This document shows, piece by piece, positions 4,283 through 60,401 of a stretch of DNA of 64,000 nt. Position numbers and translations under genes: made by a program. The stretch is from positions 94,360 through 158,359 of the forward strand of contig CBDHFH010000003.1 in assembly GCA_965262455.1 (NCBI GenBank), read 5' to 3'. The first letter of the stretch is position 1, and every line of letters starts with the position of its first letter. The stretch comes from Gammaproteobacteria bacterium. Its GTDB lineage: Bacteria; Pseudomonadota; Gammaproteobacteria; UBA4575. The notes beneath the pieces were generated by a model that saw nothing but the letters and a program-made list of their open reading frames with translations, did not search any database and was not told where the DNA came from.

Positions 4283-4981
4283 ATGACAAATACACTCAAA
4301 TCTATCCTATTTTTTACGTTCCTGTTTGCAAGCTCACATAGCTATAGCGCAAATATCAATCCTGGTGATCTACTTGTTAGCGAAGTGATGAGTAACCCTG
4401 CACAAGTCTCGGACACAGCGGGCGAATGGTTTGAGATTTTCAATGCCTCAGCTAACATCATTGACCTTGACGGAATTACTATTAGCGACAATGGTAGCAA
4501 TGCTCATGAAATAGATAATGGTGGAAGTTTGTTGATAGACCCTGGCACTTATCTTGTCCTGGGTAGAAATGCGGACATGAGTCAAAACGGAGGTTACCTG
4601 GCAGATTATGTTTACAGTAACTTCACTCTTGGTAACAGCCAGGATCAAATTATTCTTAGCAGAGACAATATAGAAATAGCTCGCCTAGACTATTCAGGTG
4701 CAGCATTCGGTGTTGCGGGTGTCAGTTCTGAATTAATAGCACAAACTCTCATGCCAACCATTTCTGACTACATGCTCACTGAAAACTTTATTTATGGCTT
4801 AGGGGACATAGGCACACCGGGTGGCCCGGGATCATTTGCTTTGACAAGTGCAAGCCCTGTGCCTATCCCTGGTGCAATTTGGTTTTTAATGTCTGGTGTG
4901 CTGTTACTTGCGCGATCCACAAAGTTTCGTAACAGCTCAGCCTGCAACAAAATCAATCCAATTAGAGAATATAGTTGCTGA
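4283..4981 (+). CDS. Lamin-tail-domain (LTD) protein with PEP-CTERM-like C-terminal sorting signal
   Basis: Signal peptide; LTD-like segment LLVSEVMSNPAQVSDTAGEWFEIFNASANIIDLDGITISDNG. C-terminus PVPIPGAIWFLMSGVLLLARSTKFR resembles PEP-CTERM (Pro-rich motif, TM helix, basic tail). 45-bp convergent overlap with the next gene. Confidence 0.6.
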   Translation: MTNTLKSILFFTFLFASSHSYSANINPGDLLVSEVMSNPAQVSDTAGEWFEIFNASANIIDLDGITISDNGSNAHEIDNGGSLLIDPGTYLVLGRNADMSQNGGYLADYVYSNFTLGNSQDQIILSRDNIEIARLDYSGAAFGVAGVSSELIAQTLMPTISDYMLTENFIYGLGDIGTPGGPGSFALTSASPVPIPGAIWFLMSGVLLLARSTKFRNSSACNKINPIREYSC

Positions 4982-10000: not shown

Positions 10001-10173
10001 TCTTCTGGCGGCGCCCCTTCATATTCCGTTACAATACGAACTAAATCCAAATCAACAATAGGAAACATTTCTTGGGGCATACTGCGCCATGAAAGAACAC
10101 CGGCAATAATAATCACCAATAGCAGTAGATTAACTATTAACGAATTACGAATTGAAAACTGAACAATACCCAT
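7027..10173 (-). CDS. RND family multidrug efflux transporter, inner-membrane permease (AcrB/HAE1-like)
   Basis: 1048 aa, 12-TM RND architecture, typical AcrB-like N-terminus MGIVQFSIRNSLIVNLLLLVIIIAG and large periplasmic loops. Confidence 0.9.
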   Translation of the reverse strand: MGIVQFSIRNSLIVNLLLLVIIIAGVLSWRSMPQEMFPIVDLDLVRIVTEYEGAPPEEIEKQITIIIEEEIETLPDVDVVTSESSEGISKIEIKLKTDVDVDDFLREVRSVVDSIDDLPLEAETPEISRLKTRFPVISVTLYGDTEPGILYQTAEDVRRDLLGLPGVASVGIAGDQEWELWVIVDPHEMAARKVSLNEVQTTLTQNLQDLPGGSLQAAEGDILLRGMGVAPNVEAVGELVLRGTSGGGQLLLSEIATVDLRLEEAETIGRFNGQPSVNLTVTKTARASTIDVADEVKGYTAKLQDRLPVGMRAGLFSDLSVYVKNRLETVMSSGIVGLVLVLISLYIFLNFRVAFITALGIPVSFLVAIILIHYLGYTINMISLFAFLIALGMIVDDAIIVTENVYRHMEAGVPREQAAMIGGKEVFWPVVASTCTTVAAFMPMFGVSGTLGKFIEVIPVVVSAALVGSLIEAFLILPSHSAEFLRIDKKPRKESKFWKPALEKYVSILRWALSNRYIVSVMTIAVLSIILTYAQTRLPYNQFGNVEIGQFLINVETPNTYSVEDSTKLAKQIEQKITYVIQQDELKSMLTNVGVILVDFNRLKLGSHYIQFIIDLEKPAPNSLIEKYISPIVNLKFRSEGTRTRNTEDIIDEIRSEIESITGIQRFSILRPQGGPSGADIEVGVVGEDIDSLIEDSGKINNFLKRVPGVRDVRQDLEPGKLEYQYTLNERGRNLGLTQAELSNAVRTGFVGLEVTHVNWVEDRYPVRVIYPDALRKNSSSLENLPITLVDGRTVYLGEVADIVLGRGLGTILRRDAQRLAVVTAEVNLETTTPLEVNDLIALEFSDLMHESSENQLLFLGEKKEANDSFNDMFNVLIISLAIIFFILAALFKSLLDPFVIMLAIPFAIVGVVIGHMIFDYNLQFLSMIGFLALTGIVVNDSLILVDFAKKRRAQGFACFEAVVDAGRVRIRPILLTTITTFLGISPLIFFASGQTAFLSPMAVSLGFGLIFATVLILIVVPCFYMVLDDVRRVTYDRIFNKASPDAL

Positions 10174-25424: not shown

Positions 25425-26120
25425 ATGAGTGATGAACCTGGCATTCTTTACACTGCCTTAAAATTAATTATCCAACTAGAGCCTGAGCTAGTTGAGATCG
25501 TGTTGCTATCTTTGAAGGTTAGTATCACCGCGGTAGTGATAGCAACATTTATCTCTATCCCTCTCGGTACTGTGCTGGGCGCATATAAATTTCCTGGACG
25601 CGATTTCATTACCGGTGTACTCAATGCGCTGATGGGACTTCCTCCAGTCGTTGTCGGCTTGGCACTTTATTTGCTGCTTTCACGTTCCGGCCCGCTAGGT
25701 AATTTAGAGCTATTATTTACCTCAGTGGCCATGATAATTGCTCAATGCATTCTCATCACACCCATCATAAGTTCACTGACACAACAAACCATTGAAGATC
25801 TTTTTAAACAGCATGCACTGCAGTTCAAAGCATTGGGGGCACCCACAAAACTGACTTTAATCCCTTTACTCAAAGATGCTAAAACCAGTTTATTCACCGC
25901 TATATTGGCTGGCTTTGGACGTGCTTCGGCTGAAGTCGGCGCAGTATTAATAGTCGGCGGCAATATAAATCATGTCACCCGCGTAATGACCACTACTATT
26001 GCACTGGAAACCAGCAAAGGTAATTTAGAATTAGCCATGGCACTGGGTATTATTTTGTTAACCATATCATTCTCTATCACGAGTCTGATGATTGTGATTC
26101 GCAAAGCCCATACAGAATAA
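25425..26120 (+). CDS. ABC transporter permease, ModB/TupB/CysTW-like anion-importer fold
   Basis: 231 aa, ~6 TM; conserved EAA-type segment GRASAEVGAVLIVGGNINHVTRVMTTTIALETSKGNLELAMALG resembling ModB/TupB. Confidence 0.7.
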   Translation: MSDEPGILYTALKLIIQLEPELVEIVLLSLKVSITAVVIATFISIPLGTVLGAYKFPGRDFITGVLNALMGLPPVVVGLALYLLLSRSGPLGNLELLFTSVAMIIAQCILITPIISSLTQQTIEDLFKQHALQFKALGAPTKLTLIPLLKDAKTSLFTAILAGFGRASAEVGAVLIVGGNINHVTRVMTTTIALETSKGNLELAMALGIILLTISFSITSLMIVIRKAHTE

Positions 26121-32306: not shown

Positions 32307-32615
32307 ATGAGTTCCAATCCTATCACTGTACAAATTCTTGATAAGGAATATCGCATTGCTTGCCCCGAAGGACAAGAACAAGCCTTGCGTGAATCAGCGA
32401 ATTACCTAAACAAACGTATTCTGGAAGTAAGAGAAAGCGGCAAAGTAATAGGCCCTGATAGAATCACGGTAATGGCCGCATTAAATCTTGCACATGAGTT
32501 CCTATCTGAGCGATCAGAACACGAAACAGTCGCTTCTAACATCAACCAACGTGTACGTAGCCTGCATGAGCGGATAGATAGTGCCATTCGTTCTTCTAAT
32601 CAGTTGGAATTATAA
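32307..32615 (+). CDS. zapA: Cell-division protein ZapA
   Basis: 102 aa; VQILDKEYRIACPEGQEQALRESANYLNKRI...AALNLAHEF aligns with E. coli ZapA. Confidence 0.85.
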   Translation: MSSNPITVQILDKEYRIACPEGQEQALRESANYLNKRILEVRESGKVIGPDRITVMAALNLAHEFLSERSEHETVASNINQRVRSLHERIDSAIRSSNQLEL

Positions 32616-32629
32616 GAAAACCCATCGTA

Positions 32630-32838
32630 AACTAATCTCTAGCGCCTCTGCGATATGCGTGAGCTTGTCGTTAAATCCCTTGAGCCTATTTACAAACCCC
32701 GGGATTGCTCGTTAAAAGATAGTGTGCATACCTGCTTCGACAGGGAGCCTTAAATCTCTTACAGTGAACCCACTTGAACCTTTGGTTCAAGGTCAACGGC
32801 TCATGCCACGGTACTCATGGAGTGCGCTTTTCCCATCT
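32630..32838 (+). ncRNA. ssrS: 6S RNA (SsrS), RNA-polymerase sigma70-holoenzyme-binding regulatory RNA
   Basis: Starts just after the zapA stop. Strong primary-sequence similarity to E. coli 6S: CCCUUGAGCCUAUUUACAAACC matches CCCUGAGCCGAUAUUUCAUACC, and GGAGCCUUAAAUCUCUUACAGUGAACCCACUUGAACCUUUGGUUCAAGG matches GAAGCCUUAAAACUGCGACGACACAUUCACCUUGAACCAAGGGUUCAAGG. The terminal segments (CUCUAGCGCC... / ...CUCAUGGAGUGCGC) can pair to close the central-bubble structure. Confidence 0.8.
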
Positions 32839-32925
32839 TATTTACTCCCCCACACTCAGGTAGCAGTTGTTTATCCATATGCTAGGATAAATGCTTACTT
32901 TGAATTCATAAAAGAGATTTTTGCA

Positions 32926-33378
32926 ATGCACTATTGGCTAATGAAGACCGAACCTAGTGAATACAGTATTGACGACCTAAAAAAAGATAAAACTGAACCC
33001 TGGGATGGCGTGCGCAACTATCAAGCACGCAATATGATGCGTGATGAAATGAAAAAAGGCGATTTAGCTTTTATGTACCACTCAAATTGCGATGACATAG
33101 GCATTGTCGGAATCATGACAATACATCGCGAAGGCTATCCTGATCACACTGCGTTTGATAAAAAAGACAAACACTATGATCCTAAAAGTGACCCTGATAA
33201 TCCACGTTGGATGATGGTTGATGTTAAATACAAACGTAAACTTAAGCGCACCATTACTCTGCAAGAACTAAAACAGCATAAAATTTTGCAAGATATGCAG
33301 CTGTTACGCAAAGGAAATCGTCTTTCTGTCATGCCTGTTAGCGAAAAACATTGGCAATATATTCTTTCACTTGAATAA
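32926..33378 (+). CDS. EVE (PUA-like) domain protein
   Basis: Internal start MHYWLMKTEPSEYSIDDLKKDKTEPWDGVRNYQARNMMRDEMKKGDLAFMYHS... matches EVE-domain N-terminal signature. The longer 218-aa ORF upstream overlaps the 6S RNA and is rejected. Confidence 0.7.
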   Translation: MHYWLMKTEPSEYSIDDLKKDKTEPWDGVRNYQARNMMRDEMKKGDLAFMYHSNCDDIGIVGIMTIHREGYPDHTAFDKKDKHYDPKSDPDNPRWMMVDVKYKRKLKRTITLQELKQHKILQDMQLLRKGNRLSVMPVSEKHWQYILSLE

Positions 33379-33695
33379 ATTTAAATAATTTCTTTATAAA
33401 TGCTAAAAAATGGATTCATTATTAAGATTTTTATAAACAAAAGGCATTTAAATCCGATTTAATGGTTGTTATGTTAAAAAATAAAACAGATTTGCATGTT
33501 TTGCGAATAATATTTTATGTTTTTTTCATGCAATTGCTTTGTAAAAACACTAAAAATCTTTTTTAAAAACTTATAAAAGTAAAAAAACACAGACGAAAAG
33601 TTTAAAAAACAATATAAAAAAACTAGTAATTTTTAGACTATTGTTTATACTCACGTCGTCAAAAAACGTTAACGTTAAAGTTTGGAGGAACACCA
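33379..33695. promoter_or_regulatory. ~320-bp highly AT-rich (A/T-tract) intergenic region upstream of the H1-like gene; probable curved promoter/UP-element DNA
   Basis: Long A-tracts and T-tracts spaced roughly helically (aaaaaa, tttttt runs). Ends in RBS tggagga 7 nt before the ATG at 33696. Confidence 0.4.
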
Positions 33696-34034
33696 ATGGC
33701 CGTCAAACGCAAAACTGCGAAACGAAAGACTGCAAAACGTAAAGCACCTGCTAAGCGTAAAGCAGTAAGAAAGACTGCGAAGCGTAAAACAGCTAAGCGT
33801 AAAACAGTTAAGAAAAAAACTGCGAAGCGTAAAACTGCAAAGCGCAAAACAGCCAAGAAGAAAACCGCTAAGCGTAAAACTGCGAAGCGTAAAACAGCAA
33901 AAAGAAAAACTGCTAAACGTAAAACTGCCAAGCGCAAAACAGCAAAAAGAAAAACTGCTAAGCGCAAGACAGCTAAGCGTAAAACAGCAAAAAGAAAAAC
34001 TGCTAAACGCAAAACAGCTAAGAAAAAGCGTTAA
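33696..34034 (+). CDS. Histone H1-like / AlgP-like basic repeat protein, (KRKTA)n pentapeptide repeats
   Basis: 112 aa, ~20 tandem copies of [KR]-[KR]-K-T-A, no other sequence. Good RBS; strong rho-independent terminator immediately downstream. The antisense ORF 33659..34012 (Leu/Ala-rich) is its mirror image. Confidence 0.7.
   Translation: MAVKRKTAKRKTAKRKAPAKRKAVRKTAKRKTAKRKTVKKKTAKRKTAKRKTAKKKTAKRKTAKRKTAKRKTAKRKTAKRKTAKRKTAKRKTAKRKTAKRKTAKRKTAKKKR
33705..34025 (+). repeat. Tandem 15-bp coding repeat (aag cgt aaa act gcN; encodes KRKTA), ~20 imperfect copies
   Basis: Direct inspection: repeating aagcgtaaaactgcg / aaacgtaaaacagca units. Confidence 0.85.
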
Positions 34035-34052
34035 TCAAATAGCATTTGAATT

Positions 34053-34082
34053 AAAAAGGGTCCTTAACGGACCCTTTTTTTT
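34053..34082. terminator. Rho-independent terminator, bidirectional (aaaaagggtcc-ttaa-cggaccctttttttt)
   Basis: GC stem flanked by an A-run and a T-run, between convergent H1-like gene and ilvA. Confidence 0.8.
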
Positions 34083-34086
34083 ACCC

Positions 34087-39873: not shown

Positions 39874-41055
39874 ATGTCGACACAGCTTGATTCAATAAAA
39901 TTGAATATCACTAACGCATCGGACCAATGCGTCATGTGTGGCATGTGTTTACCTCACTGCCCAACATATCAGGTTAGCCGACATGAAGCAGAATCACCGC
40001 GTGGACGTATATCATTAATTAAAGCATTTGCCGAGGGCAGCCTGGATGCAAGTGATCACCTTGAAGCGCATATGCAAAGTTGTACAGGTTGCTTGACGTG
40101 CCAACATGTCTGTCCAGCCAATGTCGATTTCCAAACAATTATCGATACCGGTAAACAACTTTATCGCCACAAACAAAGTCGTTCTGCACGCATCCTGCAA
40201 AACTTAACCATCAATGTAATGACTCAACAATGGGGTCATACAGTCATTAAATTAGCCAGTCGATTTGTAAAATATATACCTAATACACATCGACATATGC
40301 AGCTGCTCAGGCATGTAACCAATGAACCACAACTTAGAGCTAATCAGACTGAAACAAGTATTACTGTTTTCCCAGGATGTACAGGCAACTTATTTGACCA
40401 ACAATCATTGAATAGCCTAATCACCATATTGAATGCCATTGGTGTCAGCGCTCAGTTTCCCGACAAACTATATTGTTGTGGCGCACTTTCTCAACATAGT
40501 GGTCGACTTCAACAAGCCGAAAAAGACATACACAACATAAAACATTATTTTAAAAAAAATACATCGACTACTTTGCTTTCATTTGCAAATGGCTGCGGCC
40601 GCCAGCTCGATGAGCAATTCACTGATAGTAATGTCACGCATTATGATGCACTTGAGTGGTTTAACACACAACAGGCAGCAAAAGAGCTTAAATTTTCAAG
40701 TACCAACAAGTGTGTGCTTATACACACTCCCTGTAGTGTTGCACCAACAAAGCAAGCAATTACTTATCAATTATTAAAAAACATTCCCGGCATTAAGCTG
40801 ATCGAATTTGATGATAACCTTGCATGTTGTGGTGCAGGCGGTATGCAGTTGACCTCACCAGAAGAAAGTAATCAGCGTTTGTTAGATAGCAAAGTCAACA
40901 CAATAAACAATCTTAAACCTGATGTTATTGTTTCATCCAATATTGGATGCTCACTGAATTTTAAACTGGGCTTGGATAAGACAGCTTTAGACATTGAGGT
41001 CATTCATCCGTTAACATTACTGGCAAGGCAATTGATAACTCACACTAATGAATAA
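39874..41055 (+). CDS. GlcF-like (Fe-S)-binding oxidoreductase subunit: two 4Fe-4S ferredoxin motifs plus two CCG (Cys-rich) domains
   Basis: 393 aa; CxxCxxCxxxCP twice (CVMCGMCLPHCP, CTGCLTCQHVCP) then CCG motifs (YCCGALSQHSG, ACCGAGGMQ). Stop overlaps the coq7 start by 8 nt. Confidence 0.75.
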   Translation: MSTQLDSIKLNITNASDQCVMCGMCLPHCPTYQVSRHEAESPRGRISLIKAFAEGSLDASDHLEAHMQSCTGCLTCQHVCPANVDFQTIIDTGKQLYRHKQSRSARILQNLTINVMTQQWGHTVIKLASRFVKYIPNTHRHMQLLRHVTNEPQLRANQTETSITVFPGCTGNLFDQQSLNSLITILNAIGVSAQFPDKLYCCGALSQHSGRLQQAEKDIHNIKHYFKKNTSTTLLSFANGCGRQLDEQFTDSNVTHYDALEWFNTQQAAKELKFSSTNKCVLIHTPCSVAPTKQAITYQLLKNIPGIKLIEFDDNLACCGAGGMQLTSPEESNQRLLDSKVNTINNLKPDVIVSSNIGCSLNFKLGLDKTALDIEVIHPLTLLARQLITHTNE

Positions 41056-41686
41056 ACGAAACTTTTGTGACACTCTTATAGAAGAATTTGATCGTGGCTT
41101 AAGGACATTGACCAAAGCCTCACGTAGCGCATCACGCGACAATCCCGCGGATGACATTCCTGAAGCTGACCTAAATGACCAAGAAGCAACCCTTAGCGGC
41201 AGACTCATGCGTGTCAATCATGCAGGCGAAATTGCTGCACAAGGGCTCTATCATGGTCAGGCGCTTACTGCACGCAATCAAGCTACGCTTGAGCAGATGC
41301 GTGTGTCTGCCAAGGAAGAAGAAGATCATCTTGCCTGGTGTGAACAACGCCTCAATGAATTACAAACTCCAACCAGCATGATTACCCCGTTGTGGTATGC
41401 TGGGTCTTATGCCATCGGTGCTACCGCAGGATTGTTTGGTGATAAATGGAGTTTAGGTTTTGTTGCGGAAACAGAAAACCAAGTAGAACAACATTTACAA
41501 AGTCACCTGGAAAAACTTCCCGCTCAAGATGAAAAAAGTAAATCTATTATCGACTTAATGCAGCAAGATGAACGCAGGCATGGTGATGCGGCAAGAAATT
41601 TAGGTGGTGTTGATCTTCCCAAACCTGTGCAAAAAGCGATGCAAGCTGTATCTAAAGTCATGACAACAGGTGCTTTCTGGATTTAA
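41048..41686 (+). CDS. coq7: Demethoxyubiquinone hydroxylase, di-iron carboxylate type (Coq7)
   Basis: 212 aa; di-iron ligand motifs (RVNHAGEIAAQGLYHGQ, EEEDHLAWCEQRL, QDERRHGD). Confidence 0.85.
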   Translation: MNKRNFCDTLIEEFDRGLRTLTKASRSASRDNPADDIPEADLNDQEATLSGRLMRVNHAGEIAAQGLYHGQALTARNQATLEQMRVSAKEEEDHLAWCEQRLNELQTPTSMITPLWYAGSYAIGATAGLFGDKWSLGFVAETENQVEQHLQSHLEKLPAQDEKSKSIIDLMQQDERRHGDAARNLGGVDLPKPVQKAMQAVSKVMTTGAFWI

Positions 41687-41701
41687 CAACGGCCAAATAA
41701 A

Positions 41702-42097
41702 ATGAACCCATATAGAATATTTACAGGTTTGATAACTACATTTGTATTGCTATTTACTAACAGTGCATTTGCTGATGAAGCTAGCGCAACTAAAGAGCTA
41801 GAACAAATTATTGTGTTTGATCAAACCTGCATAATAATGCACACAGAAGGCAGAAAGTATTTAGAAAACAAAGAAAAAATTGCTCAGTCTTATGGTGCAA
41901 GCGCACTCATCGAAAAACATCTGGAAATGCGCTTGAAAGAGTATTCAGAATTAACCGGCAACAATATTGACGCGACCCGCGACGCAACATTTGACAAAGG
42001 CGTTGTATTATTCAAAGAACTTTCCAAATACCAACCCAGAGATCTGGTAATGCAATGCAAAGGATTAGTTGAAGAAATAGTAAAGACTAATATCTAG
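41702..42097 (+). CDS. Hypothetical secreted protein
   Basis: 131 aa with signal peptide (LLFTNSAFA); no recognisable domain. Confidence 0.45.
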   Translation: MNPYRIFTGLITTFVLLFTNSAFADEASATKELEQIIVFDQTCIIMHTEGRKYLENKEKIAQSYGASALIEKHLEMRLKEYSELTGNNIDATRDATFDKGVVLFKELSKYQPRDLVMQCKGLVEEIVKTNI

Positions 42098-42149
42098 TGA
42101 GTGCGAACTTAAATATTTAATCAAACGTCATATTTCGTAGCGATAGCGG

Positions 42150-42488
42150 TCATTCAATTTCGTTACCGTATTCGTCGAGAGGCGCCCTTCTAAGCTCAAC
42201 GACTTTCGTCTTCTTATGGAACACCCAATTATCATTTGTGCCGGTACAGCGACACCCTTTTAAATCACCTTTAAAACCAGTCATCCATACATGCTCACCA
42301 GAGCATAAAGGGATGCAATGATTACCATGATCTACACACCCAATAGGCCTTGAATCATCTGCGCAAGGCACGCAAAAAGTACATGCCTGGATGAATTGTT
42401 CATAATTTTGAATGTAGCTGACATCAGGTTGCGAATCACATGCTGTCATAATTAGCGTTATTAAACCGCAAGCAAATAGCTTTTTCAT
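42150..42488 (-). CDS. Hypothetical Cys-rich lipoprotein
   Basis: Start MKKLFACGLITLIMTAC (lipobox) with strong RBS aaggagg 8 nt upstream; 12 Cys in ~95 mature residues. The longer 123-aa ORF start is rejected. Confidence 0.5.
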   Translation of the reverse strand: MKKLFACGLITLIMTACDSQPDVSYIQNYEQFIQACTFCVPCADDSRPIGCVDHGNHCIPLCSGEHVWMTGFKGDLKGCRCTGTNDNWVFHKKTKVVELRRAPLDEYGNEIE

Positions 42489-42739
42489 AACAAGAACCTC
42501 CTTAGAGTTTCTATTCTTCACCTATCAGCGCAAATGCAATCAGACACTTTTATTTAGTTTTCTAAAACAGTTTCACCCTTGAAACTGACCTACATCAAAA
42601 AGCTAGATTAATCAAATATTAGAATGTCATTATACACTTAAGTTGTTGATTCTTTGTCGTTATTAAGAATTTGCAACACATTTAAGTCAATCAATTGCGT
42701 GCAACACAAATTTTTTGCACCTTATGCAAGGAGAACGAC

Positions 42740-43171
42740 ATGAAAAAAATACTACCTATTTTGTTAGTAATATCGATCACACTAATGGGAGCTGTGAATG
42801 CTTCAGACCACAGTGACGATCAAAATATTTTAATTCACCTCAGTAACTATACCAACGACCTTCATTCAGTAAACATGGCCTTAAAGCTAGGGCATATGCT
42901 CTCTGAACAAGGATCATCAGTTACTTTATTTGTTGATTTAGAGGGCGTTAGATTGGTCGATAAACATCAGCCGCAAAACTTAACATGGGGCGCTGGGAAA
43001 TCGATTGAAACTTTATACAATCAATTTATTAGCGCAGGAGGCAACGTTTTAGTATGCCCACATTGTGCAGAAGCAGCAGGCGTTACAGAAGTAAGAAAAG
43101 GTGCTGTCATTGCAGATAAAGATAGCTTAACGAAAGCGATAATGTCTGCTGACAAAATCTTAGACTACTAA
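42740..43171 (+). CDS. DsrE/DsrF-like family periplasmic protein
   Basis: Start MKKILPILLVISITLMGAVNA (signal) with RBS aggaga; DsrE-like fold pattern (ILIHLSNYTN...LFVDLEGVRLV...VCPHCAEAAGV). Confidence 0.55.
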   Translation: MKKILPILLVISITLMGAVNASDHSDDQNILIHLSNYTNDLHSVNMALKLGHMLSEQGSSVTLFVDLEGVRLVDKHQPQNLTWGAGKSIETLYNQFISAGGNVLVCPHCAEAAGVTEVRKGAVIADKDSLTKAIMSADKILDY

Positions 43172-43402
43172 GTAATACATCAAATTACATGGAAGATTGT
43201 TGCATCAAGGACGATGCAAATTATAAACATTCAATGTCAGCTTTCGGCACAAAAGCGGACATAAACTTAACTGCGAAGAATAGTAAAAAAATAACGGCCT
43301 CAATAAAGAATTAGTTATTGTTCATATAAAATTGAATGTTTACTTAAACTGTTTTGCGACATCAACTCTACACTTTTGAGCAACCGATGTATCTGACCTA
43401 GG

Positions 43403-44620
43403 TTATCCCGCAAATCCAAGCAATGCTGAGCCAAACAACCACACAGCTGCAGGCAATGGAATGGGTGCAATCGTTGCAGCCCAAGCTTCAATATTACCGT
43501 TATGAGTACCATACCCAACAAGGGTTGACCCATCTTCGGAACCAAGATTAAAGATATTATGGCAAAGGCAGTAGTGAGTCCAGTCCATCCCATCGCTGAA
43601 ATATCAATACCGTCTGCAGCCAATTCATCTTCAACGCTCAACATCAGTGCCAAGGCTTCTGACCAAATGAACGCTTCATTGCCATTCGCGGAATTGCTTT
43701 GCCCCACAATCTGTGTTATAGGGCGGGTGCCATCGCCGGACACGCCAAGAGCTTCACTAGAAAAATCACCGCCAGGTAAATCCCCAAGGCCCGTCATCAT
43801 CCCGTTTTCATATTTAAACGCTTCTCTGCCATTCGCGGAACTGCCTCTTCCCACAATCACGGTGCCATCACTGGATACGTCAAAAGCAATACTTATAAGT
43901 GTAATATTACACCGCCAGGTAAATCCCCAAGGCCCGTCATCATCCCGTTTTCATATTTAAATGCTTCAGTGCCATTCGCAGAACGGCCTTGCCCCACAAT
44001 CACGGTGCCATCGCTGGACACGCCATAAGCTAAACTTTGAAAAATACGTAGAACACTTTATTCTTACGCCAGGTAAATCCCCAAGGCCCGTCATCATCCC
44101 GTTTTCATATTTAAACGCTTCTCCGCCATTCGCGGACACAAAAAGCCTTGCCCCACAATCACAGTGCCGTCACTGGACACGCCACGAGCTTCACTAAAAA
44201 AACCACCGCCGGGTAAATCCCCAAGGCCCGTCATCATCCCGTTTTCATATTTAAATGCTTCATTGCCATTCGCGGAATTGCTTCTGCCCAGAATCACGGT
44301 GCCATCGCTGGACACGCCAAGAGCAACACTTGAAGAACCACCGCCAGGTAAATCCAGCAGACGTCGTCCAAGGCCCGTCATCATCCCGTTTTCATATTTA
44401 AACGCTTCTAATAGTTAAAGCCATTCGCGGAACTCCCTCGCCCCACAATCACGTTGCCATCACTGGATACGTCAAAAGCAATACTATTAAGACTACAATG
44501 GATGTATTTGCTGCCAGGTAAATCCCCAAGGCCGGTAAAACTGGTGAATTGCACTGCATGTGCTGGACTGAGGAATAAAAAGTATAACAACGCTGGTGTC
44601 AGTAATTTATAGAATGGCAT
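43403..44620 (-). pseudogene. Disrupted HAF-repeat extracellular protein with N-terminal signal peptide and PEP-CTERM-like C-terminus; multiple frameshifts and in-frame stops
   Basis: Minus strand starts with MPFYKLLTPALLYFLFLSPAHA (signal). It then has ~6 copies of the HAF-type repeat ...SSDGTVIVG.SNSANGNEAFKYENGMMTGLGDLPGG..., and ends ...IEAWAATIAPIPLPAAVWLFGSALLGFAG-stop (PEP-CTERM-like hydrophobic anchor without the basic tail). The reading frame switches at least four times (ORFs 44408..44620, 44094..44384, 43315..43860, 43403..43588 are all pieces). There is an ~9-bp insertion (tttaactat) at 44411-44419 and a 12-bp in-frame insertion (agcagacgtcgt) at 44357-44368. Confidence 0.6.
43772..44525. 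repeat. Imperfect tandem DNA repeats, ~132-169 bp period (6 copies of ccaggtaaatccccaaggcccgtcatcatcccgttttcatatttaaaYgcttc...gccattcgcggaa...ccccacaatcacggtgccatcRctgga), underlying the HAF protein repeats
   Basis: Copies of ccRggtaaatcc at 43772, 43914, 44069, 44211, 44343, 44512. Confidence 0.85.
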
Positions 44621-44968
44621 TTACTTGGTCCCCAACTTAAATAAAGCAATAGATGATAAAACTAACTTTAATTTTTATAATAAAAATCGAACAAGCCCAA
44701 CATATGGCTGCAAAGAGATTAGGTTACGGTATGATTAACAATTACCATCATAAAAGTAATAAATAATGCCTATTTATAACTGAAAAATTACAAGTCAAAT
44801 GTTTATTATTAACTAATTTATTCAAATAATTGATTTCATGTTTATGCTTGAATGAGAGATTGATGAGTTAGAACAAACTCATCAGATAAATTGATAAATA
44901 ATATTTCAATCAATAAAATAAATGTCCGCTATGGGTCGAAAGCAGTCATTCACTCTCTAGCTAGACCT

Positions 44969-45766
44969 TTAATTCAAATTCATTCCATAAAATATTTCCG
45001 TCATCTCGTTGCGTAACTGGTTCTCTATATACTCAATTTCTTTTTGATGCATGGTGTTGTCATCATTACCAAATAGGTAATCGTCTAACTCAAACTCTTT
45101 AAGCATCATTTTGGTGTGAAATATGTTTTCCGGATACACATTCACATCGATCATTTGATATTGCTGACGTGTTTTATCTGACATGAATTCCTGGATAGAA
45201 GAAATGCTATGGTCTTTATAATATTTCTGCCCTGTGACATCGCGCGTGAAGCCGCGGATACGATAGTCCAATACAACAATGTCTTCCTCAAAACTATCAA
45301 TTAAAAAGTTAAGCGCTTTTAATGGCGATATTTTTCCACAGGTAGAAATATCCAAATCTGCACGGAAGGTACAAATGCCGCTATCTGGATGTGACTCGGG
45401 GTAAGTGTGAGCTGTGAGATGGCTTTTATCCAAATGCGCCACCACGCTGGGCGCTTCGATAGACGCATTCAAGTCATCAGGTTCTTCTGCGTAGGCATTC
45501 TCTTCAGAGATCAACATGGTGACGCTTGCACCACTGGGATCATAGTCTTGCGTGGCCACATTCAATATGGTGGCACCAATAATGTTAGCAACTTCGGCTA
45601 GCACATCAGATAAGCGCTGTGCACTATAGGTTTGATCAATATACTCTATGTACTCATGCCGTTGCTGGCTGGTCTTGGCATAACAAATATCATAGAAGTT
45701 AAAGCTGAGCGTCTTGGTGAGATTATTAAATCCATACAGGGTGATTTTTGCGTCATCTAGCGCCAT
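44969..45766 (-). CDS. speD: S-adenosylmethionine decarboxylase proenzyme (class I, E. coli SpeD type)
   Basis: 265 aa; near-collinear with E. coli SpeD ([23 protein letters not shown], self-cleavage region ENAYAEE...[10 protein letters not shown]). Confidence 0.9.
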
Positions 45767-45783
45767 ATTGGTAAGTGTTATTG

Positions 45784-46212
45784 TTAGTTATTATTAGCAG
45801 TATCGACGATTTCGTAATCGTAGCTTATGTCCACACTAGGCTTGAGCATCATGGAGACCGAACAGTATTTTTCAGAGGTCAAATCAACTGCACGTTTAAC
45901 GTGCTTGTCTTGTAGTGCCGCGCCTTTAACAATATAGTGAACATGTATTTTGGTGAATACCGCGGGAATTGCGTCAGCCCGTTCAGCACTGATTTCCACA
46001 ATACAGTCTTCTATGGCCACACGTGATTTTTGCAATATGCTGACAATATCGAACGATGTACAACCGCCTAATCCGAGCAAGATCATCTCCATTGGGCGCG
46101 CGCCGAGATTCCGTCCACCATGCTCCGGTGAACCGTCCATGACCACAGAATGCCCGCTGGCACTCTCGCCGACGAAGCTCATATGGTCTAACCATTTTAT
46201 TCGTACGTTCAT
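45784..46212 (-). CDS. yhfA: OsmC/Ohr-family protein (YhfA-like)
   Basis: 142 aa aligns with E. coli YhfA ([24 protein letters not shown]...[23 protein letters not shown]). Divergent from crp, as in E. coli. Confidence 0.8.
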
Positions 46213-46302
46213 TTACTACCTTTCATTCTTCATTAAATCGACATGGGGAACTTCCTACCCTAGACTTCATCAAAATAAACCAGAAGTCAGAGGTTCCTTG
46301 TT

Positions 46303-46941
46303 GTGTCAAGCTTACAAATAAAAATGCCTACAGTTGATCCTACAGTTGCTCGCTTGCTCGAAAATTGCCATACCAAGCGCTACAGCAATGGCAGTCGTAT
46401 TATCCACGCCGGAGATCCTTCCACCACTCTTTATTATATAACTGGTGGTTCAGTCAGTGTCATGATTGAAGATGAAACTGGTCACGAAATGGTCCTTGCT
46501 TACCTAAACCAAGGTGACTTTTTCGGCGAAATGGGATTATTCGAAGAAGACGAGCGCAGTGCACTAATTATTGCGCGTGGTGAATGTGAAGTGGCTGAAA
46601 TCAGTTACACCAAGTTTCGCGACCTTGCCCACCAAGACCCGGATATCTTAATGCTACTCGCCGGTCAAATGACTCGACGTCTGCGTGCGACCAGTCGTAA
46701 GGTGATCAATTTAGCTTTCTTGGATGTCGCGGGCCGTGTTGCACGTACTTTATTAGATCTTGCTCACCAACCTGATGCGATGACTCATCCTGACGGCATG
46801 CAGATACGCATCACTCGTCAAGAGATTGCAAAAATTGTTGGTTGCTCACGTGAAATGGCTGGCCGCGTGTTAAAAGAACTCGAAGAACAAGGGCTGATTA
46901 CAGCACACGGTAAGACGATTGTAGTTTTTGGTACTCGCTAA
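46303..46941 (+). CDS. crp: cAMP receptor protein (CRP/Vfr global regulator)
   Basis: 212 aa, ~70% identical by eye to E. coli CRP across cNMP-binding and HTH regions ([16 protein letters not shown]...[52 protein letters not shown]). Confidence 0.9.
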
Positions 46942-46963
46942 ACTATTACAGTTAAATGTATTT

Positions 46964-47005
46964 AAAAATAGCACGCAACGCTCCGGCTTGTGCGCTATTT
47001 TTTGC
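46964..47005. terminator. Bidirectional rho-independent terminator between convergent crp and trpC (aaaaatagc...gctattttttg)
   Basis: 9-bp outer stem aaaaatagc/gctattttt with a GC-rich interior and flanking A-run and T-run. Confidence 0.55.
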
Positions 47006-47035
47006 ATGGGCACTAAGCGCCGAATCTGCTATCAA

Positions 47036-47851
47036 TCAATAGGCCCTGTTGGGGAAAAACAATTCTTTTAACTTAGCACCGGGATCAGGTGCACGCATAA
47101 ATGCTTCTCCTACCAAGAAAGAATTCACCCCATTAGACTGCATCATGGCAACATCCTCAGGTGTATGAATTCCACTTTCAGTCACTATTAAGCACTCAGT
47201 TGGAATTTTCTCTTTTAGCCGCAATGTGGTATCGAGATCTACATCAAAGGTGTTTAAGTTACGATTATTAATACCCAGCATGGTGGGCTGTAATGCAAGT
47301 GCACGTGCTAATTCCGCTTCATCATGCACCTCAACAAGTACATCCAAGTTGTTTTCTTTTGCTAATGCGTAAAGCGAGTGAAGTTTTTCATCATCAAGCG
47401 CAGCAACAATAAGCAACATGCAGTCTGCACCTAACACCCTGGATTCATATACCTGAAAGGGGTCGATAATAAAATCTTTTCTTAGCGCAGGTAACGAACA
47501 CGCTTTACGCGCCAACTCAAGTACCGGTCCACCTCCTTTAAAAAACTCATTGTCTGTTAACACAGACATGCAGGTGGCACCGCCAAACTGATAACTGCGT
47601 GCAATTGCCATTGGGTCAAAATCTTCACGAATAATCCCCTGACTTGGAGATGCGCGTTTAATTTCTGCAATTACACCCGCCTTATTGGCACTCGCCGCAC
47701 CACGTAACATCATTTCAAACGGTCGTTTGGCATCACTGTCTTTTGCCCACTCTTTCATTTGCTCAAACGTGACGCGAGTTTGCTTTTCTGCAATTTCTTT
47801 TTCTTTATGCGCAAGAATTTTGCTAAGTATTTCTGGAGTATCCTGAGCCAT
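47036..47851 (-). CDS. trpC: Indole-3-glycerol-phosphate synthase (monofunctional)
   Basis: 271 aa; IAEIKRASPSQG, LTDNEFF, CLPALRKDFIIDPFQ motifs; no fused TrpF domain. Confidence 0.9.
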   Translation of the reverse strand: MAQDTPEILSKILAHKEKEIAEKQTRVTFEQMKEWAKDSDAKRPFEMMLRGAASANKAGVIAEIKRASPSQGIIREDFDPMAIARSYQFGGATCMSVLTDNEFFKGGGPVLELARKACSLPALRKDFIIDPFQVYESRVLGADCMLLIVAALDDEKLHSLYALAKENNLDVLVEVHDEAELARALALQPTMLGINNRNLNTFDVDLDTTLRLKEKIPTECLIVTESGIHTPEDVAMMQSNGVNSFLVGEAFMRAPDPGAKLKELFFPNRAY

Positions 47852-47861
47852 GATTAAACTT

Positions 47862-48887
47862 CTAGTGAGTGTTGTTGGTAAACTTGATTAAGTCATCTAG
47901 TGTTTGCTGTGCAGCATTGGATATCAATTGTTTTGCCGCTAATTGCACGCCGGCAGTTAATGAGTCTGCTTTACCTGCGACATAAATAGCAGCACCCGCA
48001 TTTAGACAAACAATATCTGTGGCCGCGCCTGTCTCAGCATTTAACACTGATTTAATCATAGTGACGCTATCTGCGACATCATTCACTTTTATTGTATCTA
48101 GCGTATAGCGATCAATATCAAAGTCTTCTGGCTTAATCTGATAACTCTCAATCTGACCGTTACGTAACTCACATACATTGGTGGCACTAGAGATACTAAT
48201 TTCATCAAGCCCATCCTCTGCATGCACAATCAATGCGTGTTCTGTTCCCAGTGATTGCAATACCTGGGCAAGCGGCTGCAACCACTGATCATCAAACACG
48301 CCTAGCACCTGCCGACGCGCATTAGCCGGGTTAGTTAATGGACCCAACAAATTAAATAATGTACGTACGCCTAATTCTTTGCGTGGGCCAATGGCATGCT
48401 TCATACAACTATGATGCAGTGGAGCGAACATAAACCCGATACCCACTTGCTCAATACATTCAGCAATTTGTGCGGGGCTTAGTTCTAACTTAACACCCAA
48501 TGCTTCAAGTACATCGGCACTGCCTGACTGACTTGAAACTGATCGATTGCCATGTTTTGCAATCTTGACACCCGCGCTGGCGGCCACAATTGATGATGCG
48601 GTAGAAATATTAAAGGTTTTTTGTCCATCCCCGCCGGTGCCACAGGTATCAACGAGTGGATCAGCATTGACAGTCACTTTGGTAGACAGATTGCGCATCA
48701 CATGTGCAGCAGCAGTCAGTTCATCAACACTTTCACCTTTCATACGCAAGGCAATAATAAAGCCGGCAATTTGTGCAGGCGTCGCTTCACCTTGCATGAT
48801 GCAATTCATTGCAGCTTCCATTTGCTGGCGAGATAAGTCCTGCCTATCTAACACTGCAGTTAATGCTTGTTGAATAATGTCACTCAT
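47862..48887 (-). CDS. trpD: Anthranilate phosphoribosyltransferase
   Basis: 341 aa; [52 protein letters not shown]. Confidence 0.9.
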
Positions 48888-49468
48888 GCGTTTTGTTGAA
48901 TAAAATTCTTTAATAAGTGATGGCCAAAATCAGTCAATATCGATTCTGGATGAAATTGAACACCCTCTACAGGAAGTTCTTTATGCCGCACACCCATGAT
49001 TTCGTCAATCTCTCCGTTATCTTGCTGTGTCCATGCCGTCACTGATAAACAGTCTGGCAACGATTGTTTCTCGATAACCAGAGAGTGATAACGGGTCGCA
49101 GTAAACGGTTGATCACAGCCTGCGAATACGTGTTGGTTGTGATGATACACCGGTGAGGTCTTGCCATGCATGATGTCATTTGCACGTACTATATTGCCAC
49201 CAAATGCTTGGCCAATGGTTTGGTGACCCAAGCATACACCTAAGATTGGAAATTGCCCCGCGAGACTTTCCACTATATCCAACGACACACCAGCCTCATT
49301 TGGTGTGCACGGCCCGGGAGACAATACTATATGATCTGGTTTTAACTCAGTAATTTCTGACACACCAATTTGATCATTGCGCACTACTTTAACTTGCTCA
49401 CCTAACTCACCAAAGTACTGCACTAAGTTGTACGTAAACGAATCATAATTATCAATCATTAAAATCAT
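48884..49468 (-). CDS. trpG: Anthranilate synthase component II (glutamine amidotransferase)
   Basis: 194 aa; [22 protein letters not shown], catalytic triad context. 4-nt overlap with trpD. Confidence 0.9.
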
Positions 49469-49470
49469 TG

Positions 49471-50940
49471 TTATGTCACCTGCTCAGCCATGGCCGCTGC
49501 ACGTAATACGGCTTTGGCTTTATTCAATGTTTCAACCCATTCGTTGTCGGGCACTGAGTCATACACAATGCCAGCACCTGCCTGGACGGAGATGGTGCCA
49601 TTTTTAATTAATGCGGTGCGAATGGCGATGGCAGTGTCCATATCCCCTTGCCATGAGATATAACCAATTGCACCCGAATATACCCCGCGTTTGATCGGCT
49701 CTAGTTCGTCGATAATTTCCATGGCGCGAATCTTCGGCGCGCCGGATACAGTGCCGGCGGGGAAAGTGGCTTTAAGTACATCCATGCACGATTGGCCTGA
49801 CGCGAGTATACCTTTAACGTTGGATACGATATGCATAACATGAGAGTAACGCTCGACAATCATTTTATCAGTTAACTCTACACTGCCTACCTCTGCAATA
49901 CGGCCAATATCATTACGCCCCAAATCAATTAACATTAAGTGTTCAGCGAGTTCTTTAGGATCGGCCAGCAATTCCTGTTCTAATTCCAGATCATGCTGCT
50001 CATCTTTGCCGCGTGGACGTGTGCCTGCGATGGGACGTACAGTCACCTCATCACCTTCTTGTCGGACAAGAATCTCAGGTGAAGAACCAACAATTTCAAA
50101 AGATCCCAAATTCATGTAGTACATATAAGGCGAGGGATTTAAGCGTCGCAAATGACGATACACATCAATCGCCTGTCCTTTGAAATTGGCATTTAAACGT
50201 TGTGACAACACTACTTGCATCACATCGCCTGCGGTAATGTACTGCTTGGCTTTTTCAACAGCCTGTTTAAATCCTGCTTCACTAAATCCAGATACAAAAT
50301 CTAATTCGCGAATAGACTCATGACTGACATCCAACGGCTGTGAGGACGACGATGATTGCAACGCTGAAGCCAGCTCATCAATACGTGCCTGCGCTTGATT
50401 GTACTCACTCTCTTGTGCAGATACTAACACGACAATATAGGCAGTACCTTTTAAGCTATCGAACACTAAAATTTCACGTGACAACATAAATAATATGTCA
50501 GGTGTTGCGAATTCATCAGGGTTAGTACATGCACCTAATTTAGGCTCAATGTAACGAATGGTGTCGTAACCAAAGTAACCCACCAGACCACCGACAAAAC
50601 GCGGCAATGCATCAAGCTCTGGCACATTAAAGCGTGCGCGATACTCATCAAGCCATTGCAGAGGTTCATTATGTGTTAACTGCTCAATACAAGTATCATC
50701 TCGAAATACTTCGATAGTATTGCCTCGCACCTGGATATGCTCATGACATTGCAAGCCAATAATGGAATATCTGCCCCATCTTTCCCCTCCCTGAACAGAT
50801 TCAAACAGGAAGCTATAACTGCAATTAGCCAGTTTTAAATAAGCGCTTAAAGGTGTATCCAAGTCAGTCGCGACTTCGCGATAGACAGGAATGTGGGTGT
50901 AGCCTTGTCGGACTAGATCAGAGAATTGTTGTTTGTTCAT
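49471..50940 (-). CDS. trpE: Anthranilate synthase component I
   Basis: 489 aa; chorismate-binding motifs ([41 protein letters not shown]). Confidence 0.9.
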
Positions 50941-54104: not shown

Positions 54105-55337
54105 ATGCTCGGCTGGTTTTGGTCAGGTTGTATTGTCTTATCATTTTTCGCATGTATTATTCAGCTAACAATTTTTGGCAATCAAGAAATCTTTTCTCAA
54201 GTTACCACCACTTTATTTAACACCGCCAAACTCAGCGTAGAAATTGCCATCGGCTTAATTGGTCTTATGGCCATCTGGCTAGGTTTTTTTAAAATCGCAG
54301 AACGCGCAGGGTTAGCAAATTTAATTGCACGTTTACTTGACCCACTGTTTCGCAAACTAATGCCAGAAGTGCCAAGTAATCATGCAAGTATCGCTGCAAT
54401 TACCATGAACATGGGAGCGAATGTGTTAGGTTTAGATAACGCTGCCACTCCGTTGGGCATTCAGGCAATGAAAGACTTGCAGTCTATTAACCATCACAAA
54501 GATACTTTATCTAATGCACAAATTTTATTTTTAGTTCTCAACACCTCGTCGGTGACAGTCATTCCAATAACTGTGTTTTTATTTCGCGCCCAGCAGGGGG
54601 CTGCACATCCAACGGAAGTATTTATACCGATTTTAGTTGCTACCTTTACTTCAACAATTGCCGGCCTATTAAGTGTTGCTTTCGTACAAAAACTGCCACT
54701 ATTAAATAAAACCGTTATCAGTTATTTGCTGTTGTTCAGCGCTATTCCGCTGTTACTCACAATGTATTTTCTTTCTTTGCCCAAAGATCAAATGAGTACA
54801 CAGGCACAACTGATTGCCAACTTTGTATTATTTAGCATTATTACGCTATTTTTAATCAGTGGCTGGACCAAAAAAGTTAATGTCTATGACGCCTTTATCC
54901 AAGGCGCTAAACAAGGGTTTGGCACAGCCATCAAGCTAATACCTTACTTGGTGGCCATGTTGCTAGCGATTGCATTATTAAGAGCCAGTGGCATTTTAAG
55001 TGCATTAATGACTCTCGTAAGCAGTCTATTGACACACTTGAATATTGACGACTCCTTTATAGAAGCATTGCCAACTGCACTCATGAAACCCTTTAGTGGT
55101 AGCGGCGCTCGAGCGGCCATGTTAGAAGTAATGCAAGCTGAAGGAGTAGACTCTTTTCCGGCCAAAGTCGCCGCTGTGATGCAAGGCAGCACGGAAACAA
55201 CATTTTATGTACTAGCTGTCTATTGCGGTGCAGTAGGCATCACAAAAATTCGTTATGCAATGACGTGCAGTTTATTTGCCGATGCGGCAGGTATTTCAAT
55301 GGCAATATATATTTCGTATGTGTTTTTTGCCAGCTAA
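54105..55337 (+). CDS. Nucleoside-recognition (Gate) domain membrane protein, two Gate domains (SpmA/SpmB-like fusion)
   Basis: 410 aa polytopic membrane protein with duplicated Gate-like segments (VEIAIGLIGLMAIWLGFFKIAERAG... and ...LIPYLVAMLLAIALLRASG). Confidence 0.65.
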   Translation: MLGWFWSGCIVLSFFACIIQLTIFGNQEIFSQVTTTLFNTAKLSVEIAIGLIGLMAIWLGFFKIAERAGLANLIARLLDPLFRKLMPEVPSNHASIAAITMNMGANVLGLDNAATPLGIQAMKDLQSINHHKDTLSNAQILFLVLNTSSVTVIPITVFLFRAQQGAAHPTEVFIPILVATFTSTIAGLLSVAFVQKLPLLNKTVISYLLLFSAIPLLLTMYFLSLPKDQMSTQAQLIANFVLFSIITLFLISGWTKKVNVYDAFIQGAKQGFGTAIKLIPYLVAMLLAIALLRASGILSALMTLVSSLLTHLNIDDSFIEALPTALMKPFSGSGARAAMLEVMQAEGVDSFPAKVAAVMQGSTETTFYVLAVYCGAVGITKIRYAMTCSLFADAAGISMAIYISYVFFAS

Positions 55338-59243: not shown

Positions 59244-60401
59244 ATGCTTACACCGACTATATATAAAAGCTTTGCCGAGCTACCGGATCACTGTTTGTCA
59301 TTTTTAACAGAAATTGAAAAGTCTAATTTTTACCTTGGTAAAGGTTGGTTCGAAAATTTCTCTTCCAATACTGTCACGACAGACAGTCATATCCGCATCT
59401 ATAGCGTTGAAGAAACCGATGACCAGCAAATGACGCGTGGCATTATTTTCATGCGTTCGCCAGGTGGGCAGAATGGTTCCTTATCAGAAAAATTGTTTTC
59501 TGGCAGCAAAACAATTGCCAGCATGACCGCACATCAGTCAATATATTTTGCACCAGTCATTGATGAGTCGGGCTCTGATCAAGAACAAATTATTCATACA
59601 CTTATCAAAGCGATCTGCAATGATAAGCAAGCATGGAATTTGATTGACATCAATTTCATGAATAAAGACTCAAGTGTATATCGCTATGTATCAGACGCTC
59701 TCAAGCAATCTGGTATGAGTGTGCATCATTATGATTATCGTCCAAATATGTATGAAGATCTCACTAATACGACGTTCAAAGATTATATTGCCTCGCGACC
59801 TTCTATGGTGCGCAAAACATATATGCGCAAAGCACGGAAATTAGAAAAATCAGGCGACGTTAAATTTGAATTAATTACTTCAGGTGACCTGACTAAAGCG
59901 ATTGCCGATTATAAAATTATTCATGATCGCTCATGGAAAGAGGAAGAATTATTTCCCGAGCACGACCCCGGCGTCATCCAAAAAGCGGCCCAAGCTGGTT
60001 GTTTGCGTTTGGGCTTGCTCTATCTTGACGACAAACCAGTCGCGGTACAAATCTGGCTGGTCTCATCTGGCCGCGCAACCATTTACAAACTGCATTACGA
60101 TTCAGACTATCATCAGCAATCTGTAGGCGCAGTATTAATGTTGCGTATGTTTGAGCACATGATCGATGTAGAACATATTGATGAAGTTGATTTTGGTGTA
60201 GGCGATGAAACTGCAAAAAGCCTCTGGCTGAAAGACCAACGCCCACTGTGTGGAATCGTGGCCTTTAACACAAAAAAAGTGGGCGGTTTACTAGCTCTAT
60301 CAAAATTCAAATCTGCTGAGATTCTCGATACCACCAAGCAACATATCAAACCGATGTTGTTACCGATCAAACAAAAATTAGCAACAGCTAAAACAGACTA
60401 G
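59244..60401 (+). CDS. GNAT-superfamily acyltransferase of the FemAB/CelD (BioF2-like, PF13480-type) kind
   Basis: 385 aa; domain layout and length typical of CelD/FemAB-like acetyltransferases. Family assignment by pattern only. Confidence 0.5.
   Translation: MLTPTIYKSFAELPDHCLSFLTEIEKSNFYLGKGWFENFSSNTVTTDSHIRIYSVEETDDQQMTRGIIFMRSPGGQNGSLSEKLFSGSKTIASMTAHQSIYFAPVIDESGSDQEQIIHTLIKAICNDKQAWNLIDINFMNKDSSVYRYVSDALKQSGMSVHHYDYRPNMYEDLTNTTFKDYIASRPSMVRKTYMRKARKLEKSGDVKFELITSGDLTKAIADYKIIHDRSWKEEELFPEHDPGVIQKAAQAGCLRLGLLYLDDKPVAVQIWLVSSGRATIYKLHYDSDYHQQSVGAVLMLRMFEHMIDVEHIDEVDFGVGDETAKSLWLKDQRPLCGIVAFNTKKVGGLLALSKFKSAEILDTTKQHIKPMLLPIKQKLATAKTD

Follow-up and report, generated by a model that had tools for sequence, protein, structure and literature searches.

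Between coq7 and speD, a gammaproteobacterial contig carries what is very probably a genuine pseudogene of a HAF-repeat surface-protein gene, inactivated several times over by lesions that appear to be biological. The window (the whole stretch of DNA analyzed here, 64 kb in length) contains a start codon and an apparent signal peptide, both intact, followed on the minus strand by six HAF repeats, a seventh and degenerate unit, and a sorting tail that ends early. Several independent disabling lesions separate this locus from intact homologues, and the region around it is otherwise well assembled. The ancestral gene would have encoded a Sec-exported protein of about 390 to 400 aa. Its six HAF repeats, together with the seventh C-terminal unit, would form the blades of a beta-propeller, and its VPLPA/PEP-CTERM-type tail (PxP motif, transmembrane helix, and basic cluster) would make it a substrate for an exosortase, which by this putative route would release it to the cell surface or the matrix. 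Having probably arrived by horizontal transfer in a 3.3-kb accessory insertion, the gene would later have decayed as it accumulated no fewer than five independent indels that break the frame and several that preserve it, and its sorting signal would have lost its basic end. What the analyses described here establish is the family of the repeats, the lesions and the truncation of the tail, the setting of the gene within an insertion, and, for an intact homologue, a propeller fold. Features and their coordinates are collected in Table 1.

Table 1. Coordinates of the HAF remnant, its component parts, and the neighboring and related features discussed in the text
Feature	Position in window	Strand	Basis or description
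LTD (lamin-tail-domain) protein	4283-4981		PF00932, 54.6 bits
coq7	41048-41686		Coq7, NF033656 E 5e-86
Lineage-specific 3.3-kb insertion, coq7-speD	41687-44968		Synteny with related genomes
Small secreted-type ORF in insertion	41702-42097		
Small secreted-type ORF in insertion	42150-42521		
Small secreted-type DsrE-like ORF in insertion	42695-43171		PF02635
Whole remnant, HAF-repeat / VPLPA(PEP)-CTERM surface-protein gene	43403-44620	minus	ATG to premature TAA
Truncated sorting tail PIPLPAAVWLFGSALLGFAG, then TAA; without basic cluster	43403-43465	minus	Profile searches
Seventh, degenerate C-terminal unit (EAFIW...GW...EDGSTLVGYGTHNGNIEAW)	43466-43690	minus	Three-frame translation, tblastn
HAF unit 6 (about 142 nt), runs into EAFIW transition	43650-43791	minus	Unit alignment
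HAF unit 5 (143 nt)	43792-43934	minus	Unit alignment
HAF unit 4 (154 nt)	43935-44088	minus	Unit alignment
HAF unit 3 (140 nt)	44089-44228	minus	Unit alignment
HAF unit 2 (147 nt)	44229-44375	minus	Unit alignment
HAF unit 1 (158 nt)	44376-44533	minus	Unit alignment
N-terminal signal peptide MPFYKLLTPALLYFLFLSPAHA, AHA/VQ cleavage-type site	44555-44620	minus	By inspection
speD	44969-45766		SpeD, TIGR03331 E 2e-126

Repeat array, family, and fold

The conceptual, frame-corrected product of the remnant begins at the ATG at 44620 and is 406 aa long. The NCBIfam HAF-repeat model TIGR02913 matches it in six stretches with 142.1 bits (E 3.4e-42; curated cut-off, 22.65), a similarity that is far beyond chance and that bears out the proposal, made in an earlier note on this DNA, of a minus-strand HAF-repeat gene with about six repeats. 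The lower bound of 43315 given there corresponds to the point where an out-of-frame ORF stops, and the remnant itself occupies 43403-44620. By inspection, the N-terminal MPFYKLLTPALLYFLFLSPAHA, followed by VQ, looks like a Sec signal. Tandem Repeats Finder placed the array at 43767-44492, with a period of 143 (4.9 copies, score 658) and a period of 294 (2.4 copies, score 822). Units were anchored on the GGCCTTGG motif, whose minus-strand starts are the upper coordinates of the six units in Table 1, and the canonical unit is 135 nt, or 45 codons. Conservation is uneven along the array: the 70-nt core, which encodes ...ANG.EAFKYENGMMTGLGDLPGG, is 94-99% identical among four units, compared with 63-92% for the inter-core loops. 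The G+C content of the remnant is 47.8% versus 42.6% for the window. A promoter and terminator scan of the locus gave results at or below shuffle expectation, and an Rfam search of the locus matched no RNA family.

A search of 5.8 billion proteins with the conceptual product recovered thousands of HAF-repeat proteins with differing C-terminal modules, including PEP-CTERM, autotransporter, T9SS tail, and dockerin. The best match, P0001 (399 aa, 52% identity), has a PEP-CTERM tail. Intact homologues with a tail of this type (P0001, P0003, and P0011) have the same architecture as the remnant, in which a signal peptide precedes six repeats, each about 45 aa long, and a longer seventh unit on the C-terminal side leads into a PxP-hydrophobic tail. 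Homologues and remnant also have in common the repeat signature (E/H)AF...G.M..LGDLPGG...S.A.GVS.DG..VG, and the seventh unit of the homologues carries the signature AFIW...GW...DG..VG.G.N..G..EAW. In contrast to these proteins, to which it is at most 52% identical overall, the remnant has five frame breaks and a tail without its basic end, and it therefore cannot make a HAF protein. In a metagenome scan, a degenerate DNA pattern representing FKYENGMMTGLGDLPG gave no match.

A model of P0001 built from a 40-sequence alignment shows an all-beta fold of high confidence (pLDDT, 92.5; pTM, 0.86) that Foldseek aligned to TolB and WD40 propellers with a probability of 1.0, TM-scores of about 0.42-0.53, and 10-17% sequence identity. 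The likeness to the TolB C-terminal domain and WD40 proteins is one of generic fold only, not of family, and it was obtained for a modelled homologue, not for the product of the window. Since the P0001 model is a beta-propeller, the HAF repeats can be read as propeller blades, all of which would be needed in frame; thus, any single frame break would be expected to destroy the fold.

Frame breaks and the truncated sorting tail

Three-frame translation showed that reading the remnant as one protein requires the frame path 1>0>2>0>2>1, which amounts to five changes, in agreement with the "at least four" breaks counted previously. The underlying net length changes are 5, 8, 8, 17, and 19 nt. Searches by tblastn with intact P0011 and P0001 gave matches spanning 44563-43406 in frames -1, -3, -2, and -1 (three different frames), and no single ORF holds the repeats, the longest repeat-bearing ORFs being 70, 96, and 181 aa.

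The first break lies in unit 1, where the 12 nt TTTAACTATTAG (44408-44419) stand in place of the variable codon that precedes GAAGC, with a net gain of 8 nt and an in-frame TAG. The second, in unit 3, is produced by the segment CTTTTTGTGT (44136-44145; net +5 nt) and the third, in unit 4, by the loop insertion TAAGAATAAAGTGTTCTAC (44048-44066; net +19 nt). In unit 5, the fourth break (43892-43912) consists of a unit-1-like loop that is 7 nt shorter, with a net change of +8 nt and a TAA; the unit-5 and unit-1 segments are 92% identical (repeat family D3). The fifth break is in the seventh unit, which contains about 17 extra nt, ATATCTTTAATCTTGGT (43541-43557). Here the frame -2 HSPs stop at 43558 and the frame -1 HSP begins at 43540, and the latter is 68% identical to residues 296-342 of P0011, the last 47 residues of that protein. 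In addition, three insertions preserve the frame: 15 nt in a loop of unit 1, 12 nt in unit 2 (ACGACGTCTGCT, 44356-44367), which turns GLGDLPGG into GLGRRLLDLPGG, and 12 nt in unit 6 (CGCCCTATAACA, 43714-43725). Of the 9-bp and 12-bp indels described earlier, those of 12 nt were thus found, together with one of 15 nt, and the 9-nt indel was not reproduced. All of these lesions are defined relative to sister repeats and distant homologues rather than to an ancestor, because there is no close intact orthologue (best match, 52% identity).

The frame-breaking lesions consist of unique, mostly AT-rich sequence, and every one of them falls in a unit-specific stretch. The inserted segments have no copies in other parts of the window and do not duplicate the adjacent sequence in tandem. 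The earlier note had offered repeat-mediated slippage as the force eroding the gene; slips of 135 bp stay in register, whereas the observed lesions are not duplications, and their position in unit-specific loops and their out-of-register lengths lead us to reject slippage as the cause of the frame breaks. Programmed frameshifting or recoding was likewise considered and ruled out, given five shifts in mixed directions, in-frame stops, and no slippery motifs; we know of no precedent for programmed frameshifting through five mixed-direction shifts with in-frame stops.

A further lesion affects the C-terminal end. PEP-CTERM signals comprise three elements, namely, a motif, a transmembrane helix, and a basic cluster (Haft et al. 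2006, PMC1569441). The HAF anchor PIPLPAAVWLFGSALLGFAG carries a PxP-type motif, with PIPLPAA aligning to profile positions 1-7, followed by the hydrophobic transmembrane stretch AAVWLFGSALLGFAG, aligned up to profile position 19-20. It then ends directly (...GFAG) at the TAA at 43405-43403, and profile positions 20-25, where basic residues would stand at the extreme C terminus, are without a match, as anticipated by the description of an anchor cut by a stop at its basic tail. Accordingly placed partial matches were obtained with TIGR03370 (VPLPA-CTERM; 16.6-18.2 bits over profile positions 1-19 of 25, cut-off 25.35) and PF07589 (13.7 bits over positions 1-20 of 24, cut-off 20.7), and TIGR02595 did not match the tail. 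The PEP-CTERM-like character attributed to the anchor is supported. The homologous tail of P0011, PVPVPAAVWLMGSALLGLVGFKRKKVG, passes TIGR03370 with 26.7 bits in context and 31.9 bits alone, and adding P0011's FKRKKVG to the HAF tail in silico raised its TIGR03370 score from 18.2 to 30.1 bits. Because this in silico basic end lifts the score over the cut-off, the missing basic cluster explains why the HAF tail falls below threshold. Since 22 codons past the TAA remain open (PRSDTSVAQKCRVDVAKQFK, then a stop), the TAA may be a nonsense mutation within a longer tail, although an open run of this length is not unusual by chance. The HAF tail resembles VPLPA-CTERM, a flavor of the PEP-CTERM/exosortase signals, in its PxP motif and its hydrophobic stretch rich in W, L, F, G, and S, and it differs in having lost the basic cluster to the TAA and in its subthreshold scores. 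The anchor is thus of the widespread VPLPA/PEP-CTERM type in its canonical form and is not lineage specific.

Decay weighed against other readings

That the gene is really intact, and that its breaks are errors in the consensus of a repetitive metagenome region, is unlikely, although several circumstances would favor such an artefact. The sequence occurs in one assembly and on one NCBI/ENA contig of 533,853 bp, from which all of the lesions are read, and no second assembly contains it, which is the chief caveat to the pseudogene reading. This assembly is probably a MAG, since all close relatives are MAGs, and several of those relatives are whole chromosomes, suggesting long reads. Moreover, repeat cores that are 94-99% identical make the array hard for assemblers. 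Typical long-read errors are changes of +/-1 in homopolymers. The lesions, however, alter the length by a net 5-19 nt, involve unique sequence, and lie in unit-specific loops, whereas mis-joins at shared cores would keep the frame. For the same reason, the assembly collapse raised in the earlier note does not account for the locus: a mis-join at identical cores of 57-70 nt alters the copy number in frame and creates no loop lesions. The truncated tail is also a separate lesion that lies outside the repeats. ORFs of at least 100 aa cover 86% of the window; outside its initial 750 bases and a 6S RNA / lysine-repeat stretch (32616-34086), only the interval 43172-44968 forms a gap of more than 500 bp, and nine syntenic genes at 39874-50940 are full length relative to their orthologues. 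Set against about 55 kb of ORFs for which zero breaks are assumed, the five breaks within 1.2 kb correspond to a Fisher p of 5e-9, where the zero-break figure rests on ORF coverage and the orthologue check covers only those nine genes.

Readings in which the broken array remains useful to the cell fare worse than the artefact. The locus could be imagined as a phase-variable contingency locus, as the earlier note allowed, with slippage switching expression on and off, and repetitive surface-protein genes are a class in which such loci often occur. The probability of this reading is close to nil, as no short-unit repeats were found at the HAF locus; its sole homopolymer of at least 6 bases, an A7 tract at 44196 (plus strand) in unit 3 that could serve as a switch, is currently in frame with its neighbors; and five independent breaks, in-frame stops, and a truncated tail could not be reversed by any single slip. 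It is highly improbable, too, that the array is a set of silent donor cassettes feeding gene conversion into an intact HAF gene elsewhere and so generating antigenic variation. Near-identical cores around variable loops do resemble a cassette layout, and the search for HAF sequence covered the 64-kb window. Yet the window holds no second HAF-like sequence, neither the metagenome scan nor the protein search produced a relative of the FKYENGMMTGLGDLPG subfamily, and the array comes with a start codon, a signal peptide, and a sorting tail of its own, which argues for a complete gene that broke rather than promoterless cassettes. Finally, either of two ORFs, the 70-aa one at the N terminus, which covers the signal peptide and one repeat, or the 181-aa one, might be expressed as a useful residual product, given the intact start codon and signal peptide and the fact that the source record calls both fragments as separate proteins. 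We consider this just as improbable as donor cassettes, since neither one blade by itself nor a tail read out of frame can build the propeller of the intact homologue, the 181-aa ORF is out of frame over its last ~95 codons, and both ORFs are singleton clusters without conserved relatives. A decayed gene, the first of the three options put forward in the earlier note, is the reading that fits the five frame breaks together with the truncated tail.

The HAF remnant is best explained as an ordinary pseudogene from a known family, neither novel nor able to switch, and its importance extends little beyond annotation: in the public record, its 70-aa and 181-aa "proteins" ought to be joined under a single pseudogene annotation. 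The case also suggests a rule for repeat genes in general, whereby lesions that are not multiples of three and lie in unit-specific sequence point to real decay, and copy-number changes that stay in register are a sign of slippage or assembly collapse.

Insertion context and the LTD protein tail

Synteny was anchored on SpeD, using 76 loci from GTDB species representatives. The nearest SpeD loci (74-87% identity) belong to MAGs of uncultured Gammaproteobacteria or "Thiotrichales" of about 2.1-2.7 Mb. In 12 related uncultured gammaproteobacterial genomes, the coq7 orthologue is convergent to speD across a gap of about 10-80 bp, mostly about 24 bp, and the order of the upstream genes, from trpE to crp, is common to these genomes and the window. 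HAF-like sequence was found beside speD at none of the 76 loci. Since the 3.3-kb accessory insertion is absent from relatives, the HAF gene was probably acquired horizontally and would then have decayed. The closest relative (L002) carries a different gene, GST-like by inspection, at the same junction, so that the coq7-speD junction is a minor site of variation within this uncultured lineage of Gammaproteobacteria. A search for flanking repeats or mobile-element marks around the insertion yielded only weak pairs at chance level.

Only two ORFs in the window have a PxP-type sorting tail, those of the HAF remnant and the LTD protein. The suggestion that both carry one unusual, lineage-specific anchor did not hold, as the HAF tail is a widespread VPLPA-CTERM tail and the LTD tail is a different, clade-derived one. 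The LTD tail, VPIPGAIWFLMSGVLLLARSTKFRNSSACNKINPIREYSC, was detected by no sorting-signal model, and only a PxPxAxW (PxP-[GA]-A-x-W) core is common to the two tails. Within the LTD family, 101 of 115 homologues have VP[ILV]P..xW[LFIVM] near the C terminus, and the distant homologues P0234, P0180, and P0216 have canonical tails that pass TIGR03370 with 30.1, 26.6, and 26.1 bits, the P0234 tail, VPIPAAVWLFGSGLLGLAGVARKSKAA, being nearly identical to the HAF anchor. Judging by these tails, the LTD and HAF proteins of the window are of the same ancestral signal class, which is widespread and not lineage specific. In the LTD clade nearest to the window (P0122, P0131, P0136, P0148, and P0150), all sorting-signal models failed. 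Unlike the HAF anchor, tails of the window's LTD clade read VPIPGA[IV]W... and have a weak basic cluster and a 10- to 20-aa extension that often ends in PIRKYS[LV]C.

The cognate exosortase of such signals is EpsH/Xrt, which has at least 8 transmembrane helices. By a crude hydropathy measure, four ORFs in the window have at least 5 predicted transmembrane segments, at 751-2757 (15 segments), 7027-10173 (11), 54105-55337 (8), and 25425-26120 (5). A profile search assigned a Pfam Gate (nucleoside recognition) domain to 54105-55337, and with the other three judged by length and transmembrane count, no exosortase candidate was evident within the 64 kb. The decay of the HAF gene might be imagined to mark a clade-wide remodelling of exosortase-type sorting, in which the clade's conserved LTD cargo has a derived tail and the horizontally acquired HAF gene, with its canonical tail, was unusable by the host enzyme and left to decay; we regard this as unlikely. 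If it were true, the LTD tail would define a variant of the sorting signal that is new and is handled by a dedicated processing enzyme. The clade-specific LTD tail is one slightly unusual thread in this window, outside the HAF finding itself.

The coq7–speD junction

Genomic comparison places the decayed HAF-repeat pseudogene at a junction whose content differs between related genomes. In twelve relatives (among L002–L015 and L032, loci of related uncultured gammaproteobacterial genomes fetched via SpeD), coq7 and speD are separated by approximately 10–80 bp; in the window, the same junction holds a 3.3-kb insertion (41687–44968). The closest relative, L002, carries another gene at this position, which on inspection resembles a GST/glutathionyl-hydroquinone reductase. 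These arrangements mark the interval between coq7 and speD as a site of variable gene content. Family matches were weak or absent for the three small secreted ORFs of the window's insertion, and its 131-aa ORF was a singleton among 15 billion proteins.

In L003, another of the related loci, the crp orthologue (4825–5465) aligned to the window CRP in two pieces (4825–5070 and 5073–5465). The split points to a disrupted reading frame or a misassembly in the L003 metagenome-assembled genome, not in the window.

Sorting signals and associated genes

Comparison with homologues P0121–P0235 showed that the C-terminal tail of the lamin-tail-domain (LTD) protein is a clade-specific form derived from the VPLPA/PEP-CTERM signal. 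It consists of VPIPGA[IV]WLF..., followed by a weak basic cluster and then a 10–20-aa extension, for which PIRKYS[LV]C is a frequent ending. No sorting-signal model among those of NCBIfam and Pfam matched this form. In contrast, distant members of the LTD family passed the VPLPA-CTERM model TIGR03370. The tail form of this clade may represent an undescribed sorting-signal variant.

FemAB-like acyltransferases are associated with PEP-CTERM systems. The 385-aa GNAT-domain protein was considered as a candidate for such an enzyme, but NCBIfam gave only a weak BspF-like match. On metagenome contig L001 (3834–9679), the HAF/PEP-CTERM gene encoding P0001, the best intact homologue, adjoins three tandem FGE-sulfatase-domain genes and a gene for bAvd, a diversity-generating retroelement accessory protein; several GerE regulators are also present on L001.

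6S RNA and a lysine-rich repeat

Additional features of the window
Feature	Coordinates	Strand	Match or context
LTD protein	4283–4981	+	Homologues P0121–P0235
6S RNA	32642–32828	+	RF00013, 77.4 bits
Second tandem array	33711–34022		Within + strand ORF 33696–34034
385-aa protein with GNAT Acetyltransf_6 domain	59244–60401	+	PF13480, 89 bits

An ORF at 32307–32615, ZapA-like by inspection, lies upstream of the 6S RNA. Since the listed ORF 32722–33378 overlaps this RNA, its true start must be further downstream. The second tandem array comprises 20.8 copies of a 15-nt unit and also shows higher-order periodicity at 45 and 90; its product is a KTAKR-type repeat rich in Lys, Arg, and Ala that resembles a histone H1-like or nucleoid-associated tail. 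An ORF on the opposite strand (33659–34012) is the mirror image of the array-containing ORF.
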